From the IMG/VR virus record IMGVR_UViG_2737471844_000006: a DNA stretch of 47,932 nt, one strand, 5' to 3'. This DNA is from a virus (Duplodnaviria > Heunggongvirae > Uroviricota > Caudoviricetes). Shown one piece after another: positions 12,649-26,464 of the stretch. Below the pieces are notes generated by a model. That model saw only the letters and a list, made by a program, of their open reading frames with translations, did no database searches and was not told the DNA's origin. Numbering within the stretch: position 1 is the stretch's first letter; each line of letters begins with the position of its first letter. The position numbers were made by a program, and so were the translations under genes.

Positions 12649-13673
12649 ATATTAAGCAAATGTTTTCCAATCGTTTCAGACATCTTCGGAGGGACCGCAT
12701 TTCCTATTTGACGAGCCCGAGATTGCAAAGAACCAATAAATTTATAATCCAAAGGAAATGTTTGTAGACACGCTGCTTCACGAACCGATATTGCTCGATT
12801 TTGTGTTGGATGTCCAAAACGTCCATTTGAATAGCTAATACAACGAGTTGTTAGTCCGCTGGCTGGTTTGTCCCAACTCAAACGTCCATATACGTCTGTA
12901 TGCCCTTTATGGTTACGATGGCATTCTAAAATCAATTCATCTGGCCAAAATTCTCGACTTCCACCTTCAGGAGTGCATTTTATTCTACGCAAATTAAGCT
13001 CTGATAAGCGTGCAGCTTCATGATCAGGAATACTATTATGCTTTTCTCCTGCTTCTATCTTCGGTAAATTAGCGATCCAGTCCTTTACTGTTGAATAGGG
13101 AGTATTTCCAACCCCATGTGTAGGAGAAGGCAATGCGACATAAAAATCCTTGGATGCAATGAGCACTAATCTTTCTCGCGTCTGTGGTACACCGTACCAC
13201 GCAGCTGGCATTACTTTATAATCTACACTATATCCCTTTGATGAAAGCATTTCTAAAAACATCATGAATGTTCCTTCATTTTTGTTAAACTTTTGCATTC
13301 CTGGCACGTTTTCAACAAAAATAAAATCAGGCATATAATGCTCTACAAAACGACTGAATTCCTTTAATAGATCTAATCGTGGATCATCATTTTTTTTATT
13401 TGAGTTTTGCTTAGAGTATGGTTGACAAGGCGCACATCCTGAAAAAAGAATGTAATCATTACGATGTTTTTTTACTAACTTGTTTATGGCATTGTTGTCG
13501 ATTAACCTAATGTCCGAGTTAATAAAAGCAGCCTGCGGGAAATTTGCACGAAATGAACTGGCTGCATCAACGTCGAAATCGAGGCCAAAAACAATATCCA
13601 TTCCAGCTTGATGGAAACCTTGGCTGGTTCCACCACAACCGGAAAAGAAGTCAAACACTTTGATTTTTTTCAT
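12633..13673 (-). CDS. DNA (cytosine-5)-methyltransferase
   Basis: C5-MTase motifs in order: FSGCGG (I), PCQ (IV), ENV (VI), QTRER (VIII), GNAVPP (X); start at ATG 13673 with GAGGG SD; low GC. Confidence 0.9.
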   Translation of the reverse strand: MKKIKVFDFFSGCGGTSQGFHQAGMDIVFGLDFDVDAASSFRANFPQAAFINSDIRLIDNNAINKLVKKHRNDYILFSGCAPCQPYSKQNSNKKNDDPRLDLLKEFSRFVEHYMPDFIFVENVPGMQKFNKNEGTFMMFLEMLSSKGYSVDYKVMPAAWYGVPQTRERLVLIASKDFYVALPSPTHGVGNTPYSTVKDWIANLPKIEAGEKHNSIPDHEAARLSELNLRRIKCTPEGGSREFWPDELILECHRNHKGHTDVYGRLSWDKPASGLTTRCISYSNGRFGHPTQNRAISVREAACLQTFPLDYKFIGSLQSRARQIGNAVPPKMSETIGKHLLNIIKAS

Positions 13674-13696
13674 TTTTCCCTCTGCATCCAGAATCA

Positions 13697-15526
13697 CTAC
13701 CTAATGATACCACGGTCAAGAGCCTGAGTAATTATTTTTCTTATTTTTATAAATTCAGGTAATTCATTTTTAAGTCTTGCGGTCATTATTTTTTGGATGC
13801 AAAAAATCTCCTCTGCATTTACTTCTTCTTTATCATACAGGTGTTGCGCTAATAATCTTATTTGATTCTTATACAGTTCTGGATCATTAGAACTCCAGGT
13901 CTGTGAATCAATTATTTCTTTTTCACTTGGCGTAATTGCCTTTTCAATGAGTAATTGTTCGGGAGTATCAAATGGTAAATACTGCACTTTATTGAATGCA
14001 TACTCAAGCACTTGCCTTTTGAGTCTATTAGATTCTTGTTCATTTTTTTTGCCATTACTACCACTGGCATTGATAATTAACTCGCAACCATAATATTTGC
14101 ACATTGTATTAACTAAATCAGCATCAGCAATTTCACTAATTCTTACTGGTTTTATTTTTTTGTTTTTATCACCATCAAGTAAAAACAAAATATCATTGCG
14201 TTCTACCACAGCGTAACTGGGAAGATGCTTGCTTAAAATGGTCTCCGAACCACCTGGTATATAACTTACACTAAATGATAAGCTTAATCTTTCATCATTT
14301 TTAATCGCTTTATCTATAATTGCTTTAGCTAATTTATCTTCTACAATTATTGTTTTCTTGTTAATATCATGTCCTAGCTCTATAAAAGCTTCATCCGGTG
14401 CTATATTTTGAACTATTTTAGCTGTTTCATTCTCTTCATCAAAAACAAATAATTTAATGGCATCTTTGGGAAGAGTGTTCACAATAACAGGAGAATGGGT
14501 TGATATTACCACTTGATGTTTTTTCTGCTCAACAATAGAGTACAGAACATCCATCATCCTTTTCTGTGCACCAGGGTGAAGTGAAACTTCTGGTTCGTCA
14601 AGAAGAATTAATGAATTAGGTTTGGCCGAATAAATATTGAGTATTAGTGAAACTATTGCAAATTCACCACTTCCAGCAAAAGCTTCTGTATAGTTCAACT
14701 TATCAGTTGAAAGTAAAGCGGTTCCTCCTCTGGTTCCAAATAACCGATGCTCAAGAAATTTAATGACTTTATATTTTTTCCCTAATATAAATGAGACGTG
14801 CTCAACTAGTTCTGGCGCCAAGGTTATATTTTTAACAATGGTTTCCGCCCCCCAAAGTCTTAAATTACTTAGCTTTTCATCAAAAGCTTTCTTTATATAT
14901 TTAGATTTGCTTCTGATATAGTCTTGCTTTGTAATTAATACACCACTCTTCTTCTTTCTTAATTTAAAATCAGAGTGATACATACATCTATCAAATGCAC
15001 TTATTTCCGATCTGAAATCTAGGAAAACCAATCCCTTCTTGATTTTTTTCCATCTGGTTGCATTACTATTAGCACCCAGATCATCCGAAATACTCTCCAT
15101 GTTATCACCAACAGATGGTCGACTTGTTTCCCAATAATCGATTGTTTTCTTGGTAGCATTGATACGCGCTTGGAGTATTTCAACTAAACGGCCATCAGCA
15201 TTTTTATATCCATATATATATCTAGGTTTAAGAGAACTGCCATCAGCAAGTTTTAGGTCAGGAAACTCATCTGTTTCAGTTGTGAACCAATAACGAGTTA
15301 TATTTTTACCATGTGGGCAACCAAATAGCGCTTTGATAACAGAACTTTTATTAGTTCCATTTTTTCCTACTAAAGCCGTTATAGGGAACTGAAAATCGAT
15401 CCTTGCATTCTGCTCTATATTTTTAAAGTATGGAAAACGGATATGTTGTATGAATGGTTCAAATTCACCGTTTTTTAACGCGCACTGGAGTGTTCGAATT
15501 ATGCTCTTGTATGCGGAAGTGCTCAT
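13697..15526 (-). CDS. OLD-family-like ABC ATPase with putative C-terminal TOPRIM nuclease region
   Basis: 609 aa; deviant Walker A LVGKNGTNKSS, Walker B LILLDEPEVSLHP, H-loop ISTHSP, then TIIVEDK and ILFLLDGD resembling TOPRIM Glu and DxD; low GC; MTase ATG follows 24 nt after its stop. Confidence 0.8.
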   Translation of the reverse strand: MSTSAYKSIIRTLQCALKNGEFEPFIQHIRFPYFKNIEQNARIDFQFPITALVGKNGTNKSSVIKALFGCPHGKNITRYWFTTETDEFPDLKLADGSSLKPRYIYGYKNADGRLVEILQARINATKKTIDYWETSRPSVGDNMESISDDLGANSNATRWKKIKKGLVFLDFRSEISAFDRCMYHSDFKLRKKKSGVLITKQDYIRSKSKYIKKAFDEKLSNLRLWGAETIVKNITLAPELVEHVSFILGKKYKVIKFLEHRLFGTRGGTALLSTDKLNYTEAFAGSGEFAIVSLILNIYSAKPNSLILLDEPEVSLHPGAQKRMMDVLYSIVEQKKHQVVISTHSPVIVNTLPKDAIKLFVFDEENETAKIVQNIAPDEAFIELGHDINKKTIIVEDKLAKAIIDKAIKNDERLSLSFSVSYIPGGSETILSKHLPSYAVVERNDILFLLDGDKNKKIKPVRISEIADADLVNTMCKYYGCELIINASGSNGKKNEQESNRLKRQVLEYAFNKVQYLPFDTPEQLLIEKAITPSEKEIIDSQTWSSNDPELYKNQIRLLAQHLYDKEEVNAEEIFCIQKIMTARLKNELPEFIKIRKIITQALDRGIIR

Positions 15527-17826: not shown

Positions 17827-17948
17827 ATGTCCGAAAAACGGCAGAGAACATAAAACGTGCTGGTGGTTGCTAATACTGGTCTTTCGGCTTGTATTTTTGT
17901 AAATCGATATATACTTATCTTGTGACCAGTAATGTCAGGGCAATTGAT

Positions 17949-18692
17949 ATGAATGAAGCCTGTTCTGTTGTTTTTGTTCATTCCCCGTTTGTTGTGCTCT
18001 TTGAAGGAAAAGAGCTCTCTCTTGAAAGTGGTAGTGCACTTCTTGTCAGGGGGGGAGCTGGATCGTTATTGCCCTTTTCGGAATGTTTTCGGCGAATAAG
18101 TCTCAGTGAATCGACAATTAGCCGTTACCTGTTGTGTGGAGACGAAAAACAGGATGTAGTTTTAGTCCGGCAAATACCACGATATCTTTGCGTGAGTTTT
18201 CCGAAGGCAGAATTGATGGGCATCCTGATTGATTATCTTTGTGAGGAAAAGATTCATACGGACAATTTAGCGGAAATGCTTTCCTTTTCGTGTCTGGCGT
18301 TTTTCTCATCAGAGAAGATGTTTTCGTCGTTTCTGACCGCGTGTATTAGCAATATTAGTGACAGGCTTAGTGCATTGTTTCGTACGGACATTGCAGCAAA
18401 CTGGACTCTGAGAGATGTGTCTTCGCGGTTATGTATCAGTGAAAGTTTGTTAAAAAAAAGACTGAAAGAAGAAGGCACCTGTTTCAGTGAGTTGTTGCTT
18501 ACAGAGAGAATGAGAATGGCAGCAATGCTGTTGAATCAATCTCGTTGCGCCATCAACAGAATCGCTGCTCAGTGCGGCTATAATTTTACATCTTATTTTA
18601 TCAGCGTATTCAGGAGTTATTTTGGTGTTACACCGGCAGGTTACAGGATGGCTGCATTCAATGAGATGAGTTTAAGTGTTACTCAAGAATAA
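17949..18692 (+). CDS. AraC-family transcriptional regulator
   Basis: 247 aa; C-terminal AraC-type double HTH (NWTLRDVSSRLCISESLLKKRL...INRIAAQCGYNFTSYFISVFRSYFGVTP). Confidence 0.8.
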   Translation: MNEACSVVFVHSPFVVLFEGKELSLESGSALLVRGGAGSLLPFSECFRRISLSESTISRYLLCGDEKQDVVLVRQIPRYLCVSFPKAELMGILIDYLCEEKIHTDNLAEMLSFSCLAFFSSEKMFSSFLTACISNISDRLSALFRTDIAANWTLRDVSSRLCISESLLKKRLKEEGTCFSELLLTERMRMAAMLLNQSRCAINRIAAQCGYNFTSYFISVFRSYFGVTPAGYRMAAFNEMSLSVTQE

Positions 18693-20573: not shown

Positions 20574-20696
20574 CAGGCATTACAGCAGCCCTTCAGTGTG
20601 AGGGGCTGCGATAATGTCAAAGCTCGTTATCAGCACCCGCCGCGCACCCAGCGCACTGGCCGATAGCGGGCTTTTTTATTCATAAAGCGAGGCTGT

Positions 20697-21485
20697 ATGA
20701 GCGAGAAATTGAAGATCGTCTATCGCCCGTTGCAAAAACTGTCTCCGTATGCGCACAACGCCAGGACACACAGCCCTGAGCAGGTGGCACAACTGGTAGA
20801 AAGCATTAAGCAATTCGGCTGGACCAATCCGGTGCTGATTGACGAAAAGGGCGAAATTATTGCTGGTCACGGTCGCGTGATGGCGGCTGAGGTGCTCAAA
20901 ATGGATTCTGTTCCGGTCATTGTTCTGTCTGGCCTGACGGATGATCAGAAAAAGGCGTACCGCCTGGCAGATAATCGCCTGCCGCTCAACGCTGGCTGGG
21001 ATGAAGAACTGTTACGGGTGGAACTGTCGGAGCTAATCAATGCTGATTTTGATATCTCCCTGACAGGATTCAGCCCAACAGAAATTGATGAACTGTTGAT
21101 GGAAGTTTTGCCAGGTACCGGAAATGAGGAGGAGCAGTATACGACGAAAATTGATACGCCTGTTTATGAGCCGTCGGGCGATAAACCGGATATCAGTGAA
21201 CTGTACGACGATACGAAAACTCAGGAGCTGATCAGCCGGATACGTTCGGCGTCCCTTGAGCCTGATATCGAAAAATTCCTCCTGTGCGCGGCAGAACGCC
21301 ACACGGTGTTTAATTTCAGCAGAATTGCGGATTATTACGCTCACGCCCCCGCTGAAATTCAGCGCCTTTTTGAGGAGTCGGCGCTGGTGATCATTGATTA
21401 TCAGCAGGCTATTGAAAATGGATTTGTCCGGATGACGCAGCACATGGTGGAGATCATGCATGGCGGGGAGGAGGAATATGCGTGA
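20697..21485 (+). CDS. ParB-like nuclease domain protein
   Basis: N-terminal ParB/Srx-type motif (KLSPYAHNARTHS...GHGRVMAA). Confidence 0.75.
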   Translation: MSEKLKIVYRPLQKLSPYAHNARTHSPEQVAQLVESIKQFGWTNPVLIDEKGEIIAGHGRVMAAEVLKMDSVPVIVLSGLTDDQKKAYRLADNRLPLNAGWDEELLRVELSELINADFDISLTGFSPTEIDELLMEVLPGTGNEEEQYTTKIDTPVYEPSGDKPDISELYDDTKTQELISRIRSASLEPDIEKFLLCAAERHTVFNFSRIADYYAHAPAEIQRLFEESALVIIDYQQAIENGFVRMTQHMVEIMHGGEEEYA

Positions 21486-22410
21486 TGATTTTTGCGCCTT
21501 TATTCTGACTCACGGGCGACCGGACAAAGTTCTGACTTACCGGACGTTGCGTCGTGCTGGCTATACCGGGAAAATTTTTATCGTTGTTGATGATGAAGAT
21601 AAGACACGGCATCAGTACATAGTTGAATTTGGTGAACAGGTGCTGGTGTTTTCCAAAGCCGATATAGCCAGTCGTTTTGACGAAGCCGATAATTTCGGTG
21701 ATCGCCGCTCAATTTTTTACGCCCGTAATGCCTGTTTCGACCTGGCAAAACTGGTCGGGTGTAAATACTTCATTCAGCTCGATGATGATTATCACGAGTT
21801 CCAGTTTCGGGTGGATCGCAACTATGACCAGGCCTATTTCCCGATAAGAAAACTGGATGCGATCCTTTCTGAAATGCTGGCGTACTACGAATCAATACCT
21901 GCGCTTTCCATCGCTATGTCGCAGGGCGGGGATTTTCTTGGTGACAATGGCGGCCATGCTTCGTGGGTGAAACGCAAGGCAATGAACAGCTTTATCTGTT
22001 CGGTTGATCGACCGTTCTCATTCATGGGGCGCATTAACGAGGATGTGAATACGTACACGAATCTCGGTCGCTGTGGTGAATTGTTTATGACGATCGGTGC
22101 TGTCCAGTTAGGGCAGAAACAGACGCAGAAAAACAGCGGCGGAATGACCGAGCTGTATCTGGATTCCGGAACCTACGTTAAAAGTTTTTACTCCGTCATG
22201 TATGCGCCCTCGTGCGTAAAAATCTCACTGATGGGGGCCAGCCATAAACGCATTCACCATCAGGTCACTTGGAACAACGCTGCAGTAAAAATCCTTCACG
22301 AAAAATACAGGAAGAAGACACCCTGCATATCAATGGGGGTGACAAATGATTCCGTATTCGAAAGTCGAGTCTCTGGCAGCGTGCCGGATGACTGCACAAC
22401 AAATCGCTGA
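21478..22410 (+). CDS. Hypothetical protein with DxD motif (possible nucleotide-sugar transferase-like fold)
   Basis: 310 aa from ATG 21478 (GGAGGAGG SD, overlaps ParB-like stop); FIVVDDED and QLDDDY acidic motifs; function unknown. Confidence 0.45.
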   Translation: MRDDFCAFILTHGRPDKVLTYRTLRRAGYTGKIFIVVDDEDKTRHQYIVEFGEQVLVFSKADIASRFDEADNFGDRRSIFYARNACFDLAKLVGCKYFIQLDDDYHEFQFRVDRNYDQAYFPIRKLDAILSEMLAYYESIPALSIAMSQGGDFLGDNGGHASWVKRKAMNSFICSVDRPFSFMGRINEDVNTYTNLGRCGELFMTIGAVQLGQKQTQKNSGGMTELYLDSGTYVKSFYSVMYAPSCVKISLMGASHKRIHHQVTWNNAAVKILHEKYRKKTPCISMGVTNDSVFESRVSGSVPDDCTTNR

Positions 22411-22597
22411 CGTTCTGGATGTTGATCTGAACCGACTGAAAGAAAATCGGGAAGCAATGACAGATTTTTACGCATCCATCCGTAAGGGCAGAGCGAAAGG
22501 TGAAGCCGAACTACGGGCGGCATTGTTTAAGCTTGCCAGAAAAGGGGATGCCTTTGCCCTGCGTGAACTACTCAGGGTGGATAAAAATCAGGACTAA
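22388..22597 (+). CDS. Small HTH-like protein
   Basis: About 69 aa (MTAQQIADVLDVDL...); overlaps end of upstream gene; could start at 22346. Confidence 0.4.
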   Translation: MTAQQIADVLDVDLNRLKENREAMTDFYASIRKGRAKGEAELRAALFKLARKGDAFALRELLRVDKNQD

Positions 22598-22600
22598 CTA

Positions 22601-23692
22601 ATGAGCAGACCGGACTGGGGGGCGTTGCAGCAGGAATATATTGCTGAATACACCCGCTCCGGTGTATCTCCGGTGGCATGGTGTGAGGCAAGGGGACTGA
22701 ATTACGCAACAGCCCGTCGTTACATCAAAAAACCTCCGAAAAATGCGCAGACAGAAATGCGCAAAACTGCGCAACAAAGTGCGCAGAAAAAATCTGCGCA
22801 GACTGCGCAAAAGCGGAACGGAAAATCTCAGAAAAAAAAGCCAGTATCCGATGCGTGCCTGAATGAGGGCGACGCGGAGGAATTTTCGTTCTGCCCCGAT
22901 GAATTCGGCATTTCTGACCAGCAGGCTAAGTTTGCGATGCTTGTTGCTCAGGGGAAAAAGCCGACAGAGGCATACCGACTGGCTGGTTATGAGGGGCAAG
23001 GTGCGACAGCTAACAGCAACGCCAGCCGTATGCTTAGAAATGCCAGGGTTTATCGTGCTATCAGCTACTTCCGCAATCAGTATCAGAAACGCTATACCGC
23101 AGACCTGGATTTACTGGTGAGTCAGTTGATGGCTATTGTCCAGGCCGACCCCAATCAGTTGGCACAATTTCGCCGTGTTAACTGCCGTTATTGCTGGGGC
23201 GAGAATCATCTCTACCAGTGGCGTGATATTGCAGAATTCGATAAGGCAGCGGCACAGGCCTCCAGAGATGGCAAACCCGAGCCGGAATATGGAGGCCTCG
23301 GCTTTGTTGATAACGCCATACCCAATCCGGATTGTCCGAAGTGCTGCGGTGAGGGAACGGGACAGCTTTATATGGCTGATACCACTCTGCTTGATGGGGA
23401 TGCGCGACAATTATATGCAGGGGCAAAGCTCGGGAAATTTGGTGTTGAGATCCTGCTGGAGGATAAGGCTGCCGCCCGGCGCGAACTTATCAAGCTGATA
23501 ATGGCGACGAAAGGAAGTTCTGCTGGTGGTGCAACTGACAGTCGCAATGATCTGGAGCTTGAAGGACTGAGGCTTCGCAACGAAAAGCTGCGCACTGAGA
23601 TTGAAAACCTCAAAAAAGGCGTGGGTGGTGAGAATAACGAAATAATTATCCACAACTCTCTGCCGATGCCGGGAGTGGATAATGTCGATTGA
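22601..23692 (+). CDS. Terminase small subunit (putative) with Cys-rich C-terminal region
   Basis: N-terminal HTH (VAWCEARGLNYATARRYIKK) directly before terminase large subunit; CRYCWG...CPKCCGEG motif. Confidence 0.6.
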   Translation: MSRPDWGALQQEYIAEYTRSGVSPVAWCEARGLNYATARRYIKKPPKNAQTEMRKTAQQSAQKKSAQTAQKRNGKSQKKKPVSDACLNEGDAEEFSFCPDEFGISDQQAKFAMLVAQGKKPTEAYRLAGYEGQGATANSNASRMLRNARVYRAISYFRNQYQKRYTADLDLLVSQLMAIVQADPNQLAQFRRVNCRYCWGENHLYQWRDIAEFDKAAAQASRDGKPEPEYGGLGFVDNAIPNPDCPKCCGEGTGQLYMADTTLLDGDARQLYAGAKLGKFGVEILLEDKAAARRELIKLIMATKGSSAGGATDSRNDLELEGLRLRNEKLRTEIENLKKGVGGENNEIIIHNSLPMPGVDNVD

Positions 23693-25010
23693 AATCTACC
23701 TCCCAAAACCTCATGAGGGGCAAATAGCTGCATGGACGGCGGCAATAGAGGAACGCTTCCACGCGGTATGCTGTGGTCGTCGCTGGGGTAAAACGGTGAT
23801 GCTGGTAAACATCGCTACCAGTTTCGCTACGCGGAAATTTGCCGTTCCTACCACCGGGCAACTTATCGCGGGTAGGGTGGGGATTTTTACCGCACAATAC
23901 CGCCAGTACCAGGAAATCTGGGATGAAATTAGCGCCGTTCTGCAACCGCTGATCCTCAGCCAGTCAAAAAATGAAAAGCGCATTATTCTCCGTAATGGGG
24001 GGCGCATCGACTTTTGGGTAACGGACAATAACAAACTGGCCGGGCGTGGGCGTAAATATCACGCTGTGCTGATTGATGAGGCAGCATTCACTAAATCGCC
24101 GGAAATGCTCGAGGAAATCTGGCCCCGAGCTATACGCCCGACGCTTGTCGATTACCGCGGCTGTGCGTGGGTATTTTCCACACCAAACGGTATCGACGAG
24201 AGCAATTTTTTCTACGCGATATGCCACGATGAATCCCTGGGATTTGTCATGCACCATGCGCCAACTTCATCGAATCCGTATATTCCGAAAGAAGAACTGG
24301 AGGAAACGGAGAAGAAATCCGATCCGCGCGTCTGGCAGCAGGAATATCTTGCCGAGTTCGTGGACTGGTCCAAAGACGCGTTACTCGATGTCGATAAGCT
24401 GCTGGTGGACGGTCAGCCGATTGAGATGCCGCCGTACTGCGACATGATTTTCGCAGTGATGGATACGGCGCTGAAAGGCGGGACCGAAAATGATGGTACT
24501 GGCGTGTTGTATTTCGCTTATGAGTCAACGTATTCGGAAGAGCCAAAACTGACGATTATTGACTGGGATGTTACGCAAATTAAAGCGTCATTGCTTCCTG
24601 AATATATCCCCGGCGTTTATGACAACCTTGAGCGCCTCGCGAAATTATGCCGTCCGCGTCTGGGCAGCCAGGGAATTTTTATGGAAGACGCCGCGATGGG
24701 GGCAATCCTCAACCAGAAGGCGGAAACCGAAGGCTGGGATATGACGCCGATTAAATCGGCACTAACCAGCAAGGGCAAAGACGAACGGGCGGTGATGGCA
24801 TCCAGCTACCACTATCAGGGGATGTGCAAAATCGTCCGGGAGGCTTACGACAAGACCGTTTCATTCAAGCGTACCACCGCAAACCACCTCATAAAACAAA
24901 TCGCCGGATTCCACCTGGCGGATAAAGACGCGCATAAACGTGCTGATGACCTTTTCGATTGTTACACCTATGGATTGATCATCGCGCACGGTAATTACGC
25001 GGAGTTGTAA
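23682..25010 (+). CDS. Terminase large subunit
   Basis: 442 aa; Walker A-like CCGRRWGKT, Walker B-like AVLIDEAA; terminase-type layout. Confidence 0.9.
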   Translation: MSIEIYLPKPHEGQIAAWTAAIEERFHAVCCGRRWGKTVMLVNIATSFATRKFAVPTTGQLIAGRVGIFTAQYRQYQEIWDEISAVLQPLILSQSKNEKRIILRNGGRIDFWVTDNNKLAGRGRKYHAVLIDEAAFTKSPEMLEEIWPRAIRPTLVDYRGCAWVFSTPNGIDESNFFYAICHDESLGFVMHHAPTSSNPYIPKEELEETEKKSDPRVWQQEYLAEFVDWSKDALLDVDKLLVDGQPIEMPPYCDMIFAVMDTALKGGTENDGTGVLYFAYESTYSEEPKLTIIDWDVTQIKASLLPEYIPGVYDNLERLAKLCRPRLGSQGIFMEDAAMGAILNQKAETEGWDMTPIKSALTSKGKDERAVMASSYHYQGMCKIVREAYDKTVSFKRTTANHLIKQIAGFHLADKDAHKRADDLFDCYTYGLIIAHGNYAEL

Positions 25011-25027
25011 AAATCAGGATATTTTTG

Positions 25028-26464
25028 ATGGCAGAGATCGAGATTACTGGCGGCCTCGGTTCAGCACTGATGCATATTCTTGAGGCTGAAGAAATTCAGC
25101 CGGGAACCGACATTGGCTATGAATTGTGTAAGCAGCTGTGGCAATTCCATCCTCTGGGCGGAAAACTTGTCGAAAAACCCATACTTATGGCGATGTGTAA
25201 GCCGCGTCAGTACAACGTGGAGACAGACCCTGACGAGCGGGTTGTGCGGCGTTTCCAGGAGGTATGGGAACGTATGAAGGTTAACGAGAAGATTAAAAAT
25301 CTATTTTTTCTGTCTCGTTGCTACGGTGCCGCAGCGATCGGCGTGGGCACCGACAGTGTTCCATGTCGTGAGCCGCTTCCGACATTCGGACTGACAGAAG
25401 ATGATGTGTATATCAACGCGTGGGACCCGTTGAACGCTTCTGGTTCGATGGTGACTGACCAGAACCCAAACAGCCCGTTTTTCCAGGAAGCCAATAAAAA
25501 GCTGAAGATTGGCGGAAAAGACTGGCATCCGTCACGCACACTGAAAATTTTCAATGGCACACCGATTTATCTGGAGTTTCAGAGTTCATCGTTCGGCTTC
25601 ACCGGGCGAAGCGTGTTTCAGCGCGTTCTTTATTCCCTGAAATCCTATATCAATACGATGGAGGCGAATGATCTCGTCAGCCAGAAGGCAGGCGTGCTGG
25701 TGGCTAAAGTTGTGCAGTATGGTTCGAAACTTGACGGGATCATGGCTGCCGCCACGGGACGAAAAAGGGAAAATGTCAAAGAGGCAAAAAATAAAGGTGT
25801 GCTTAGTATCGGGAAGGATGAGGACGTTACCTCGCTGAATTTACAAAACATCGATGGCGCGCTAAATGCCGCCCGCGACAACATTATTTCCGATATTGCA
25901 TCAGGTAGCGATGTTCCCGCGATTCTCATCAAGGAGGAGGCTTTTTCGAATGGTTTCGGTGAAGGAACCGAGGACTCGAAAGCCATCAGCCAGTATATCG
26001 ATGGTGTACGCCAGCAGATTGAACCTGTGATGGATTATTTCGAACGCCTGGTGCAGTACATCGCCTGGAACGAGGAATTTTATCAGTCGCTGAAAAATGA
26101 TTACCCGGACATCATAACCGAGGACTATAAAACCACGTTTTACCAGTGGCGGCGCGAGTTTACCGCGACGTGGCAGGAGCTGGTGGAGGAGTCGCCGGAC
26201 AAACGCCGGGAAAGCGACAGTAAAGTGATTCAACAGGCGATAGCACTTTTCTCTGCCGTGTCGCTACAGGTTGATCCTGAAAACCGTGCCGCCGTCACTG
26301 AATGGCTGGCAAGCCTTGTTAATGCCACGCAGACCTATGGCGAAGCTCCACTCATCATTGATGTGGACGCCCTGGCGAATTATGAACCACCGAAGCAGGA
26401 GACGCCTGATGGCAATTTCCAGCCGGGCGGGGAGGAAGAAGAAACGGATCAGGACGCTGTATGA
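25028..26464 (+). CDS. Portal protein (putative)
   Basis: About 478-aa ORF directly after terminase large subunit; by position and size. Confidence 0.65.
   Translation: MAEIEITGGLGSALMHILEAEEIQPGTDIGYELCKQLWQFHPLGGKLVEKPILMAMCKPRQYNVETDPDERVVRRFQEVWERMKVNEKIKNLFFLSRCYGAAAIGVGTDSVPCREPLPTFGLTEDDVYINAWDPLNASGSMVTDQNPNSPFFQEANKKLKIGGKDWHPSRTLKIFNGTPIYLEFQSSSFGFTGRSVFQRVLYSLKSYINTMEANDLVSQKAGVLVAKVVQYGSKLDGIMAAATGRKRENVKEAKNKGVLSIGKDEDVTSLNLQNIDGALNAARDNIISDIASGSDVPAILIKEEAFSNGFGEGTEDSKAISQYIDGVRQQIEPVMDYFERLVQYIAWNEEFYQSLKNDYPDIITEDYKTTFYQWRREFTATWQELVEESPDKRRESDSKVIQQAIALFSAVSLQVDPENRAAVTEWLASLVNATQTYGEAPLIIDVDALANYEPPKQETPDGNFQPGGEEEETDQDAV

Follow-up and report, generated by a model that had tools for sequence, protein, structure and literature searches.

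The 47,932-nucleotide (nt) virus record IMGVR_UViG_2737471844_000006 (Caudoviricetes), referred to here in its full length as the window, carries at positions 20697 to 22410 two overlapping genes, which encode a ParB-like protein of 262 amino acids (aa) and a protein of 310 aa. A first-pass annotation, made from the sequence alone, had described the second product as unknown. It was identified here as a glycosyltransferase (GT) of the TAGT (TET-associated glycosyltransferase) family, and its upstream neighbor was found to end in a small domain that accompanies this enzyme in many phyla. The novelty lies in the partner domain, previously undescribed and obligate for this TAGT glycosyltransferase; the enzyme family itself is known. 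The features of the pair are as follows.

20697 to 21485, forward strand: ParB-like partner gene ("ynaK" type), 262 aa; from the open reading frame (ORF) list, Pfam ParB_N, phrog_620, AlphaFold2 (AF2), and the ratio of nonsynonymous to synonymous substitution rates (dN/dS)
20697 to 21116, forward strand: ParB-CTPase-fold (ParB/Srx) N-domain of the partner, aa 1 to 140; from Foldseek, PDB sequence matches, and motif conservation
21132 to 21431, forward strand: TAGT-partner C-domain, aa 146 to 245; from alignments A2, A3, and A5; acidic, with an isoelectric point (pI) of 4.4; no Pfam family
21138 to 21188, forward strand: linear motif Y148-T-x-K151-I-x-x-P155-x-Y157-E-P-x(4)-P164; from conservation; predicted to be disordered in the monomer
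21467 to 21474, forward strand: Shine-Dalgarno-like GGAGGAGG, located 3 nt ahead of the glycosyltransferase ATG and within the 3′-terminal part of the partner gene; direct reading
21478 to 21485, forward strand: 8-nt overlap of the glycosyltransferase ATG (21478) with the partner stop codon TGA (21483 to 21485); from the sequence
21478 to 22410, forward strand: TAGT-family GT-A glycosyltransferase gene, 310 aa (RefSeq WP_001204027.1, "GREB1-related protein"); from Pfam, phrog_842, and AF2/Foldseek
21517 to 21519, forward strand: Arg14 codon (HGR motif), first element of the R...DDD...ED signature; invariant in alignment A1
21781 to 21789, forward strand: D102-D103-D104 codons (QLDDDY), the DxD metal/nucleotide-sugar binding motif; invariant in A1
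22039 to 22044, forward strand: E188-D189 codons (NEDVNTY), third active-site element; invariant in A1

The overlap of the two ORFs and the Shine-Dalgarno sequence ahead of the second had both been pointed out in the first-pass annotation and could be read directly. The 8-nt start/stop overlap is consistent with translational coupling of partner and glycosyltransferase. The glycosyltransferase ORF can also be read from an earlier start, giving 316 aa (21460 to 22410) rather than 310.

The 310-aa protein matched Pfam PF20691 (TAGT, GT-A) with 119.6 bits (cutoff, 27.5; E value, 2.2e−34); the match spanned aa 8 to 222 and profile positions 4 to 205 of 205. It also matched phrog_842 (E value, 2e−102), which PHROG labels "beta-glucosyl-HMC-alpha-glucosyltransferase," a label transferred by family and not by function. 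AF2 modeled residues 1 to 150 with a predicted local distance difference test (pLDDT) score mostly above 85, weakening past residue 220. Foldseek matches of this model in the PDB were all GT-A or nucleotidyl-transferase folds (SpsA, glycogenin, ColGalT1, LARGE1, and SunS), and those in BFVD were TAGT-domain viral proteins (E values, 3e−20 to 1e−12). The protein is a TAGT member by sequence, fold, and motifs. Structure prediction, one of the checks initially proposed for it, thus returned a GT-A fold, and the early suggestion of a nucleotide-sugar transferase-like fold was borne out by the Pfam match and the DxD motif as well. No solved structure for any TAGT member was detectable by sequence search. 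Neither protein of the pair had a methyltransferase (MTase) Pfam match, in keeping with the earlier observation that the 310-aa protein lacks methyltransferase motifs.

The acidic motifs FIVVDDED and QLDDDY that had drawn attention to the 310-aa protein were located at aa 33 to 40 and aa 100 to 105, respectively. Residues R14, D102, D103, D104, E188, and D189 were invariant in A1, which aligns 16 homologues with identities as low as 59%. An R...DDD...ED(Y/F) signature has been described for phage GT-A DNA glycosyltransferases and the trypanosome base-J glucosyltransferase (JGT), which align with each other (10.1101/2023.12.21.572611); in the window protein, the ED is followed by Val and then by N-T-Y. 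The acceptor-side C-terminal region was nearly invariant in A1 from Escherichia coli to other bacterial phyla, and the TAGT homologue of haloarchaeal virus HHTV-2 gave a full-length match to the same TAGT profile. Within Enterobacteria, dN/dS was 0.06 to 0.07 for the enzyme and 0.11 to 0.13 for the whole partner (C-domain, 0.06 to 0.075; N-domain, 0.13 to 0.15); both genes are under strong purifying selection. The pI of the glycosyltransferase ranged from 5.4 to 9.5 across the sequences examined. Most homologues stop near aa 287, and the last ∼23 aa in the window (22338 to 22410) are a local extension, beyond the end of almost all homologues, that overlaps the next small ORF.

Conservation of the pairing was followed in 38 loci with glycosyltransferase relatives (48 to 99% identity) from one-genome-per-species bacterial and archaeal contigs, which spanned Enterobacterales, Bacteroidota, Desulfobacterota, Firmicutes, Planctomycetota, Saccharibacteria, Actinobacteriota, Ignavibacteria, and Alphaproteobacteria. 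A partner-matching ORF lay directly upstream of the TAGT gene, on the same strand, in all 38. The best-matching part of these upstream ORFs was the C-terminal ∼100 residues (E values, 1e−19 to 1e−74), not the ParB domain. The partner stop codon overlapped the TAGT ATG in 39 of 45 nonredundant loci from many phyla, the overlap being 11 nt long at 24 loci and 8 nt long at 11. A stand-alone C-domain gene directly preceded the TAGT gene in metagenomic phage contigs and in Vibrio phage pv27, and a ParB_N–C-domain fusion preceded it in Lactobacillus phage phi jlb1, in HHTV-2, and in a Porphyromonas phage whose TAGT shares just 27.5% identity with that of the window. The TAGTs of T4-like phages, with only 22 to 26% identity to the window protein, had no C-domain neighbor, and the N-terminal extension of the T4-like phiAS5 TAGT, considered as a built-in C-domain, gave no hidden Markov model (HMM) match.

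The pairing is not a chance juxtaposition. As judged from these sequence comparisons, the evolutionarily obligate coupling is that of the TAGT with the C-domain and not with the ParB domain. The coupling first proposed for the two genes held in every locus, with the amendment that its constant element is the C-domain rather than the ParB-like region for which the gene had been named. The module took up two kinds of position: directly before terS/terL and portal genes (E. coli, Lactobacillus, Porphyromonas, Bacteroidota, and marine contigs), or inside replication modules with SSB, ERF, helicases, primases, VRR-NUC, and N6/N4 methyltransferases.

From N to C terminus, the partner comprises the ParB/Srx N-domain, the disordered conserved linear motif, and the helical C-domain. 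The C-domain itself consists of the linear motif, four confidently predicted helices (aa 173 to 227; pLDDT, 83 to 96), and a conserved ALVIIDxxxAIExGF segment; in the AF2 model, aa 137 to 156 were disordered (pLDDT, <50) and the tail after the helices was of low confidence. Conservation was scored over 115 representatives sharing at most 50% mutual identity. Within the motif, P155 and Y157 were present in all 115 and Y148 and P164 in 113 each, and 16 residues of the C-domain were each at least 98% conserved (Y148, P155, Y157, P164, F194, L195, R201, H202, A211, Y214, Q222, E226, L230, D234, A238, and G242). The domain was acidic in all 18 sequences examined (pI 4.3 to 5.2).

A profile search with C-domain alignment A3 recovered 3,035 proteins, and no Pfam annotation covered the C-domain region among the best 120 of these. 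Stand-alone C-domain proteins made up 98 of the 118 top matches checked (median length, 131 aa); the best matches were all at most 369 aa long, with the domain at the C-terminus. Among 1.84 billion cluster representatives, the domain was found, always at the C-terminal end, in 1,395 clusters at 50% identity (1,156 at an E value of ≤1e−10). ParB_N preceded it in 114 of the 147 top representatives checked and was not recognizable in the other 33. No fusion of C-domain and TAGT was seen among the best 120 proteins or the best 150 cluster representatives. A known family was sought for the domain by scanning 18 members against Pfam at E values up to 10, which returned only scattered subthreshold matches (Phage_Gene47 in 6 of 18, with a best E value of 0.017, and UPF0262 in 2). 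No Pfam match was better than an E value of 0.003 and no PDB profile match better than 0.0058, both below thresholds, and the Foldseek list for the full-length partner model was dominated by the ParB N-domain. On these profile comparisons, the C-domain is treated here as an undescribed domain.

The partner matched Pfam ParB_N with 28.8 bits (cutoff, 26.3) and phrog_620 with an E value of 8e−88; Foldseek aligned the model to Noc, ParB, PadC, and KorB (E values, 1e−6 to 1e−4) over ∼140 residues, and PDB sequence matches of the N-domain were to Spo0J. Nucleotide-motif residues were recognized in the window partner at N21-x-R23, box II G57-H-G-R60, and A-D-N93; they were kept in 57 to 88% of the 115 representatives and lost in some, e.g., at loci L009 and L012. 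The partner gave no match to a helix-turn-helix (HTH) DNA-binding domain or to PF23552 (ParB dimerization) and scored 36.7 bits against TIGR00180, under the cutoff of 58.45. A canonical partition ParB of the ParABS type was rejected: the protein is without HTH and dimerization domains, and the prophage annotation lists no parA (parS sites lay outside the search).

The N-domain (aa 3 to 146) matched phage ParB-DNA methyltransferase fusions (phrog_498, 1.9e−51; PADLOC MTase_II, 4.6e−38), which upholds the view that one type of targeting domain has been given a different effector here. The first-pass annotation had noted that a ParB-like gene at this position is often paired with a DNA methyltransferase and had proposed a different effector here, and this closeness agrees with it. 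Membership of the pair in a defense system was also considered and rejected; in PADLOC, the partner matched nothing beyond the MTase_II N-domain, and no defense or antidefense model matched the glycosyltransferase.

The reading that we favor, tentatively and at somewhat less than even confidence, is that the pair forms a two-subunit, late-expressed, cotranslated phage glycosyltransferase acting on DNA. We infer all four of its elements: a physical complex, DNA as the acceptor, late expression, and a protective role. The 310-aa TAGT would be the catalytic GT-A subunit, using a nucleotide sugar through the R14/D102-D104/E188-D189 site, and the upstream protein would be its obligate partner, cotranslated in stoichiometric amount. 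The acidic C-domain, with its Tyr/Pro motif and helical bundle, would bind and activate the TAGT or complete its acceptor side. The optional ParB-CTPase-fold N-domain could couple the enzyme to DNA or to nucleotide state, in which it would resemble both the ParB-like proteins that activate phage thymine dioxygenases and the ParB_N domains of phage DNA methyltransferase fusions. The module would be expressed together with the packaging genes and would mark the progeny DNA as packaging takes place or shortly beforehand, thereby shielding it from host nucleases.

DNA as the acceptor is supported by the characterized TAGT relatives, which glycosylate DNA, by the DNA-transaction or packaging neighbors of the module, and by the MTase-fusion type of the ParB_N domain. 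The phage thymine dioxygenase 5mYOX176 requires a ParB-like protein without a DNA-binding domain on double-stranded DNA (O'Toole et al., PNAS 2026, PMC13229309). This ParB dependence is an experimental precedent for a partner-activated enzyme. The TAGT acceptor side and the partner are nearly invariant across phyla and extend to HHTV-2; the acceptor must therefore be either universal (a nucleic acid) or encoded by the module.

Several observations weigh against this interpretation. The C-terminal third of the glycosyltransferase model and the motif region of the partner model are of low confidence. The N-domain is acidic like the C-domain (partner pI, 4.3 to 5.9 over both domains), and with the HTH lacking, the partner is no obvious DNA binder; in many phages with the module, moreover, the ParB N-domain is missing or separately encoded and is dispensable. 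GREB1, a eukaryotic TAGT relative, modifies a protein, O-GlcNAcylating ER-alpha (PMC7968844). No TET/JBP, ThyA-like hydroxymethylase, C5-MTase, or alpha/beta-GT was annotated in a 41.7-kb stretch of the identical prophage that ends in the baseplate genes, in the complete 38-kb phi jlb1 genome, or among Pfam-annotated neighbors in the module neighborhoods examined. A hydroxymethyl-pyrimidine source nearby, the contextual hallmark of TAGTs, is absent here. To our knowledge, no glycosyltransferase acts on canonical DNA bases, and we know of no characterized phage DNA glycosylation that starts from anything other than 5-hydroxymethyl- or 5-hydroxy-pyrimidines. The DNA-modifying or antirestriction role put forward in the first-pass annotation is accordingly not established.

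These absences bear on two further proposals. One is that C-domain and TAGT together would be a self-sufficient enzyme glycosylating unmodified DNA (a canonical base, a DNA end, or the backbone) with no need of a hydroxymethyl-pyrimidine precursor, which we consider doubtful. If it were true, this would be a chemically new DNA modification made by temperate phages of many bacterial phyla and by haloarchaeal viruses, and the mark would be present in the virion DNA of prophages in roughly one-sixth to one-third of sequenced E. coli.

The other is a canonical secondary glucosyltransferase dependent on 5-hydroxymethylcytosine or 5-hydroxymethyluracil, with its substrates, hydroxymethylated or already glucosylated pyrimidines, supplied by genes elsewhere or by a coinfecting phage. 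The family to which PHROG and Pfam assign the window protein is shared with the T2/T6 enzyme, whose substrate is alpha-glucosyl-5-hydroxymethylcytosine provided by a hydroxymethylcytosine pathway and an alpha-GT of the same phage, and it has been suggested that prophage GTs might hypermodify invading genomes (10.1101/2023.12.21.572611); however, the low identity to the T4-like phage TAGTs, which are without a partner, argues against such a substrate, and so does the failure to find any alpha-GT, beta-GT, dCMP hydroxymethylase, or 5mYOX either in the prophage or in small module-bearing phages with complete genomes. The module also occurs in hosts or viruses of haloarchaea, Lactobacillus, and Bacteroidota, where such substrates are unexpected. 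This explanation is highly improbable and is ranked the least likely. In one version of it, the prophage would provide defense by hyperglycosylating invading T-even DNA; a late, packaging-proximal site without a promoter of its own argues against expression in the lysogen.

The main rival to DNA as the acceptor follows from the C-domain motif. The TAGT could glycosylate its own partner, with the invariant disordered Y-[TS]-x-K-x(3)-P-x-Y-E-P motif as the acceptor in a Tyr/Thr/Ser O-glycosylation like that of glycogenin or GREB1. The C-domain is the sole component universally coinherited with this TAGT clade, its most conserved stretch holds two invariant Tyr residues and a Thr/Ser and is predicted to be disordered, and an acceptor encoded by the module would explain, with no DNA precursor pathway, the conservation of the TAGT acceptor side across bacteria and archaea. 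GREB1 provides a TAGT relative that is a protein O-GlcNAc transferase, and among the Foldseek neighbors are GT-A enzymes that modify proteins or peptides (glycogenin, ColGalT1, and SunS), although that likeness is generic to GT-A (E value, ∼1e−3; template modeling score, ∼0.3). Some 10 further polar or structural residues of the helices are invariant (R201, H202, Y214, Q222, E226, and D234 among them), a pattern expected of a binding or catalytic surface more than of a passive substrate; the 8/11-nt overlap implies 1:1 synthesis, as is more usual for two subunits than for an enzyme with its substrate; and the DNA-metabolism neighborhoods and MTase-type ParB_N point to DNA. We therefore regard self-glycosylation as unlikely. 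The same holds for the product that it would yield, a glycosylated acidic ParB-like protein active as, e.g., a decoy, a DNA mimic, or a regulator in packaging or antidefense; DNA-mimic proteins are acidic as the partner is.

Occasional extra genes were seen with the module. In a P22-like metagenomic phage contig (L124, 1850 to 4418), two adjacent genes encode ParB_N (125 aa) and the C-domain (129 aa) separately, and a 317-aa His_Phos_1 plus CTP_transf_like gene, which may make a nonstandard nucleotide-activated donor, lies between the C-domain gene and the TAGT gene. A class-I S-adenosylmethionine (SAM) methyltransferase domain of the small-molecule (Methyltransf_23/11) type, not a DNA N6/N4/C5 MTase, recurred in three other loci: fused to a TAGT that is followed by a second TAGT paralogue (L035:3581-6161), fused N-terminally to the ParB-like partner (L023:189-1736), and as a gene just before a stand-alone C-domain gene (L127:5159-5992). 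These extras point to sugar or donor chemistry. A Bacteroides prophage with the module encodes, ∼4.6 kb downstream, a 954-aa protein (L024:14581-17442) with a C-terminal ADP-ribosyltransferase exoenzyme domain (PF03496; E value, 5.9e−18), and homologues of this ORF were found in six Bacteroidota loci.

The nucleotidyl-transferase and histidine-phosphatase gene and the methyltransferase domains also bear on a reading in which the pair acts on another universal cytoplasmic molecule, such as an RNA (tRNA or another) or an immune signal (a nucleotide or small molecule, glycosylated as a means of antidefense), with the partner as an allosteric activator. Such an acceptor would be universal across bacteria and archaea, as is required, and would need no DNA precursor pathway, none being present. 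The accessory genes are explained equally well by donor-sugar synthesis or tailoring; activity on RNA or free nucleotides is not known for any TAGT-family member, the glycosyltransferase matches no PADLOC defense or antidefense model, and genes sited in replication or packaging modules, as this pair is, are typically DNA modifying. An RNA or small-molecule acceptor is on this balance quite improbable.

A two-subunit enzyme acting on DNA can be set beside several known systems. The T2/T6 beta-glucosyl-HMC-alpha-glucosyltransferase is a PF20691 member (PMC13216743), and with it and the 5mYOX/TET-associated phage TAGTs the window protein shares a strong HMM match, the GT-A fold, the R...DDD...ED signature, phage encoding, a length of ∼285 aa, a cytoplasmic location, and a conserved C-terminal region. 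It differs from them in being without TET/JBP, ThyA-like hydroxymethylase, C5-MTase, or a primary alpha/beta-GT, and from the T4-like phage TAGTs in that only the window type has an obligate upstream partner domain. Phage GT-A genes without 5mYOX or ThyS were left unexplained in a previous survey (10.1101/2023.12.21.572611), and "solitary" TAGTs of undefined function have been counted in 288 of 753 phages (a 2026 NAR paper, PMC13216743); the window TAGT falls in this solitary set. JGT and GREB1 are assigned to the same GT-A family and have the catalytic motif in common, a comparison made by description only; JGT depends on JBP-made 5-hydroxymethyluracil and GREB1 has a protein target, and both are without a ParB-like or C-domain partner.

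The 5mYOX176/ParB176 pair likewise places a DNA-modification-type enzyme gene beside a ParB-CTPase-fold protein without HTH, with nucleoside triphosphate (NTP)-motif residues recognizable (though kept in only part of the partners here), an essential C-terminal domain in the ParB-like protein, and terminase genes often near. The enzyme here, in contrast, is a glycosyltransferase and not an iron/2-oxoglutarate (Fe/2OG) dioxygenase; the C-domain is constant and is not a ParB dimerization domain (no Pfam match), and ParB_N is often absent. ParB_N fusions to N6_N4_Mtase or Methyltransf_23 have been surveyed (PMC12704722). Such fusions share with the partner the N-domain sequence type and the niche just upstream of the terminase in temperate phages; they differ in that the effector here is a separate GT-A protein and that the novel C-domain replaces the MTase. 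More remotely, the pair recalls DesVII/DesVIII, EryCIII/EryCII, and GtfA/GtfB, in which the catalytic GT is inactive or unstable without a dedicated, coencoded partner. This analogy is one of concept only, the folds and partners being unrelated and the targets natural products or adhesins. ParB has been listed among the frequent neighbors of DNA-modification genes (10.1101/2023.12.21.572611). No description of a TAGT-ParB unit or of the C-domain was found in the accessible literature; the founding description of TAGT, reportedly that of Iyer et al. in 2013, was outside that search.

A large, coherent subset of the "solitary" TAGTs is thus never solitary, being tied to an undescribed, extremely conserved partner domain that is usually fused to a ParB-CTPase fold, and with a start/stop overlap retained all the way from E. 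coli to viruses of haloarchaea, enzyme and partner make up a well-delimited unit of two genes. If the pair does place a new mark on DNA with no precursor pathway, this would widen the second, just-discovered function of ParB-like proteins, the activation of enzymes that modify DNA; a phage system dedicated to protein glycosylation, if that were true instead, would be new as well.

The window is a Rac-type lambdoid E. coli prophage, and an identical stretch is present in strain mip270_05; E. coli JNU also has the identical sequence, and E. coli W and APEC O1 are among those with close relatives of the prophage. The gene order of the mip270_05 prophage is intR-xisR-ralR-recET-kilR, followed farther on by the lysis genes, "ynaK," "GREB1-related protein," terS, terL, and the head and tail genes; the pair is thus located between lysis and terminase genes. 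The 1.7-kb pair was detected in 1,566 of 5,426 complete E. coli genomes, with coverage of at least 80% in 889, a frequency that makes the module directly accessible in E. coli; it was also found in 10 phage records (induced coliphage or Salmonella phage). A foreign origin by composition was not backed, the GC content of the pair (0.48 to 0.52) being similar to that of the surrounding DNA. RefSeq/PGAP annotates only the first 258 nt of the intact 262-aa gene, as a "ynaK" pseudogene "missing C-terminus" (NZ_CM132658.1, 884655 to 884912). This call arises because K-12, whose Rac prophage keeps only the equivalent of window positions 20653 to 20950, carries just a 5′ fragment of the gene, and the C-domain is therefore invisible in many genome annotations. 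K-12 ydaY was considered as a TAGT remnant and rejected; no BLASTP alignment was obtained, and the segment named above is all that K-12 shares with the window here.

Downstream of the pair lie the following features, which agree with the location just upstream of the terminase given in the first-pass annotation.

22346 to 22597 (83 aa) or 22388 to 22597 (70 aa, RefSeq), forward strand: small ORF between the glycosyltransferase gene and terS
22601 to 23692, forward strand: TerS gene; from Pfam Terminase_2 and phrog_51
23682 to 25010, forward strand: TerL gene; from Pfam Terminase_6N and phrog_2

The small ORF matched only an internal part of the terminase-small-subunit family phrog_309 and is kept beside the module in enterobacterial loci. 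A consensus scan identified no σ70-like promoter in the 123-nt gap before the pair (20574 to 20696), and a promoter or terminator belonging to the pair was discounted, the scan around this gap having given nothing meaningful. The sole σ70-like site between 19800 and 22700 was inside the TAGT gene, a count under chance level. The pair would most simply belong to the late transcript.

Elsewhere in the prophage, a 479-aa gene directly after terL (25025 to 26464) occupies the portal position, and its RefSeq name, "anti-CBASS protein Acb1 family protein," seems to have been transferred from another annotation. Convergent "sce7726 family protein" and "beta family protein" genes between the replication genes and hokD (∼13477 to 15112) may be a defense or accessory cassette, and a 386-aa "type I restriction endonuclease" gene among the baseplate genes of the tail region (∼40515 to 41675) may be a defense moron. 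An AraC-type HTH regulator gene (17889 to 18692; 267 aa from the first start, 247 aa in RefSeq) lies between a DUF1133 gene and the holin genes; its GC content is low (∼0.42 to 0.44), and it is an unusual insertion in the late/lysis region.

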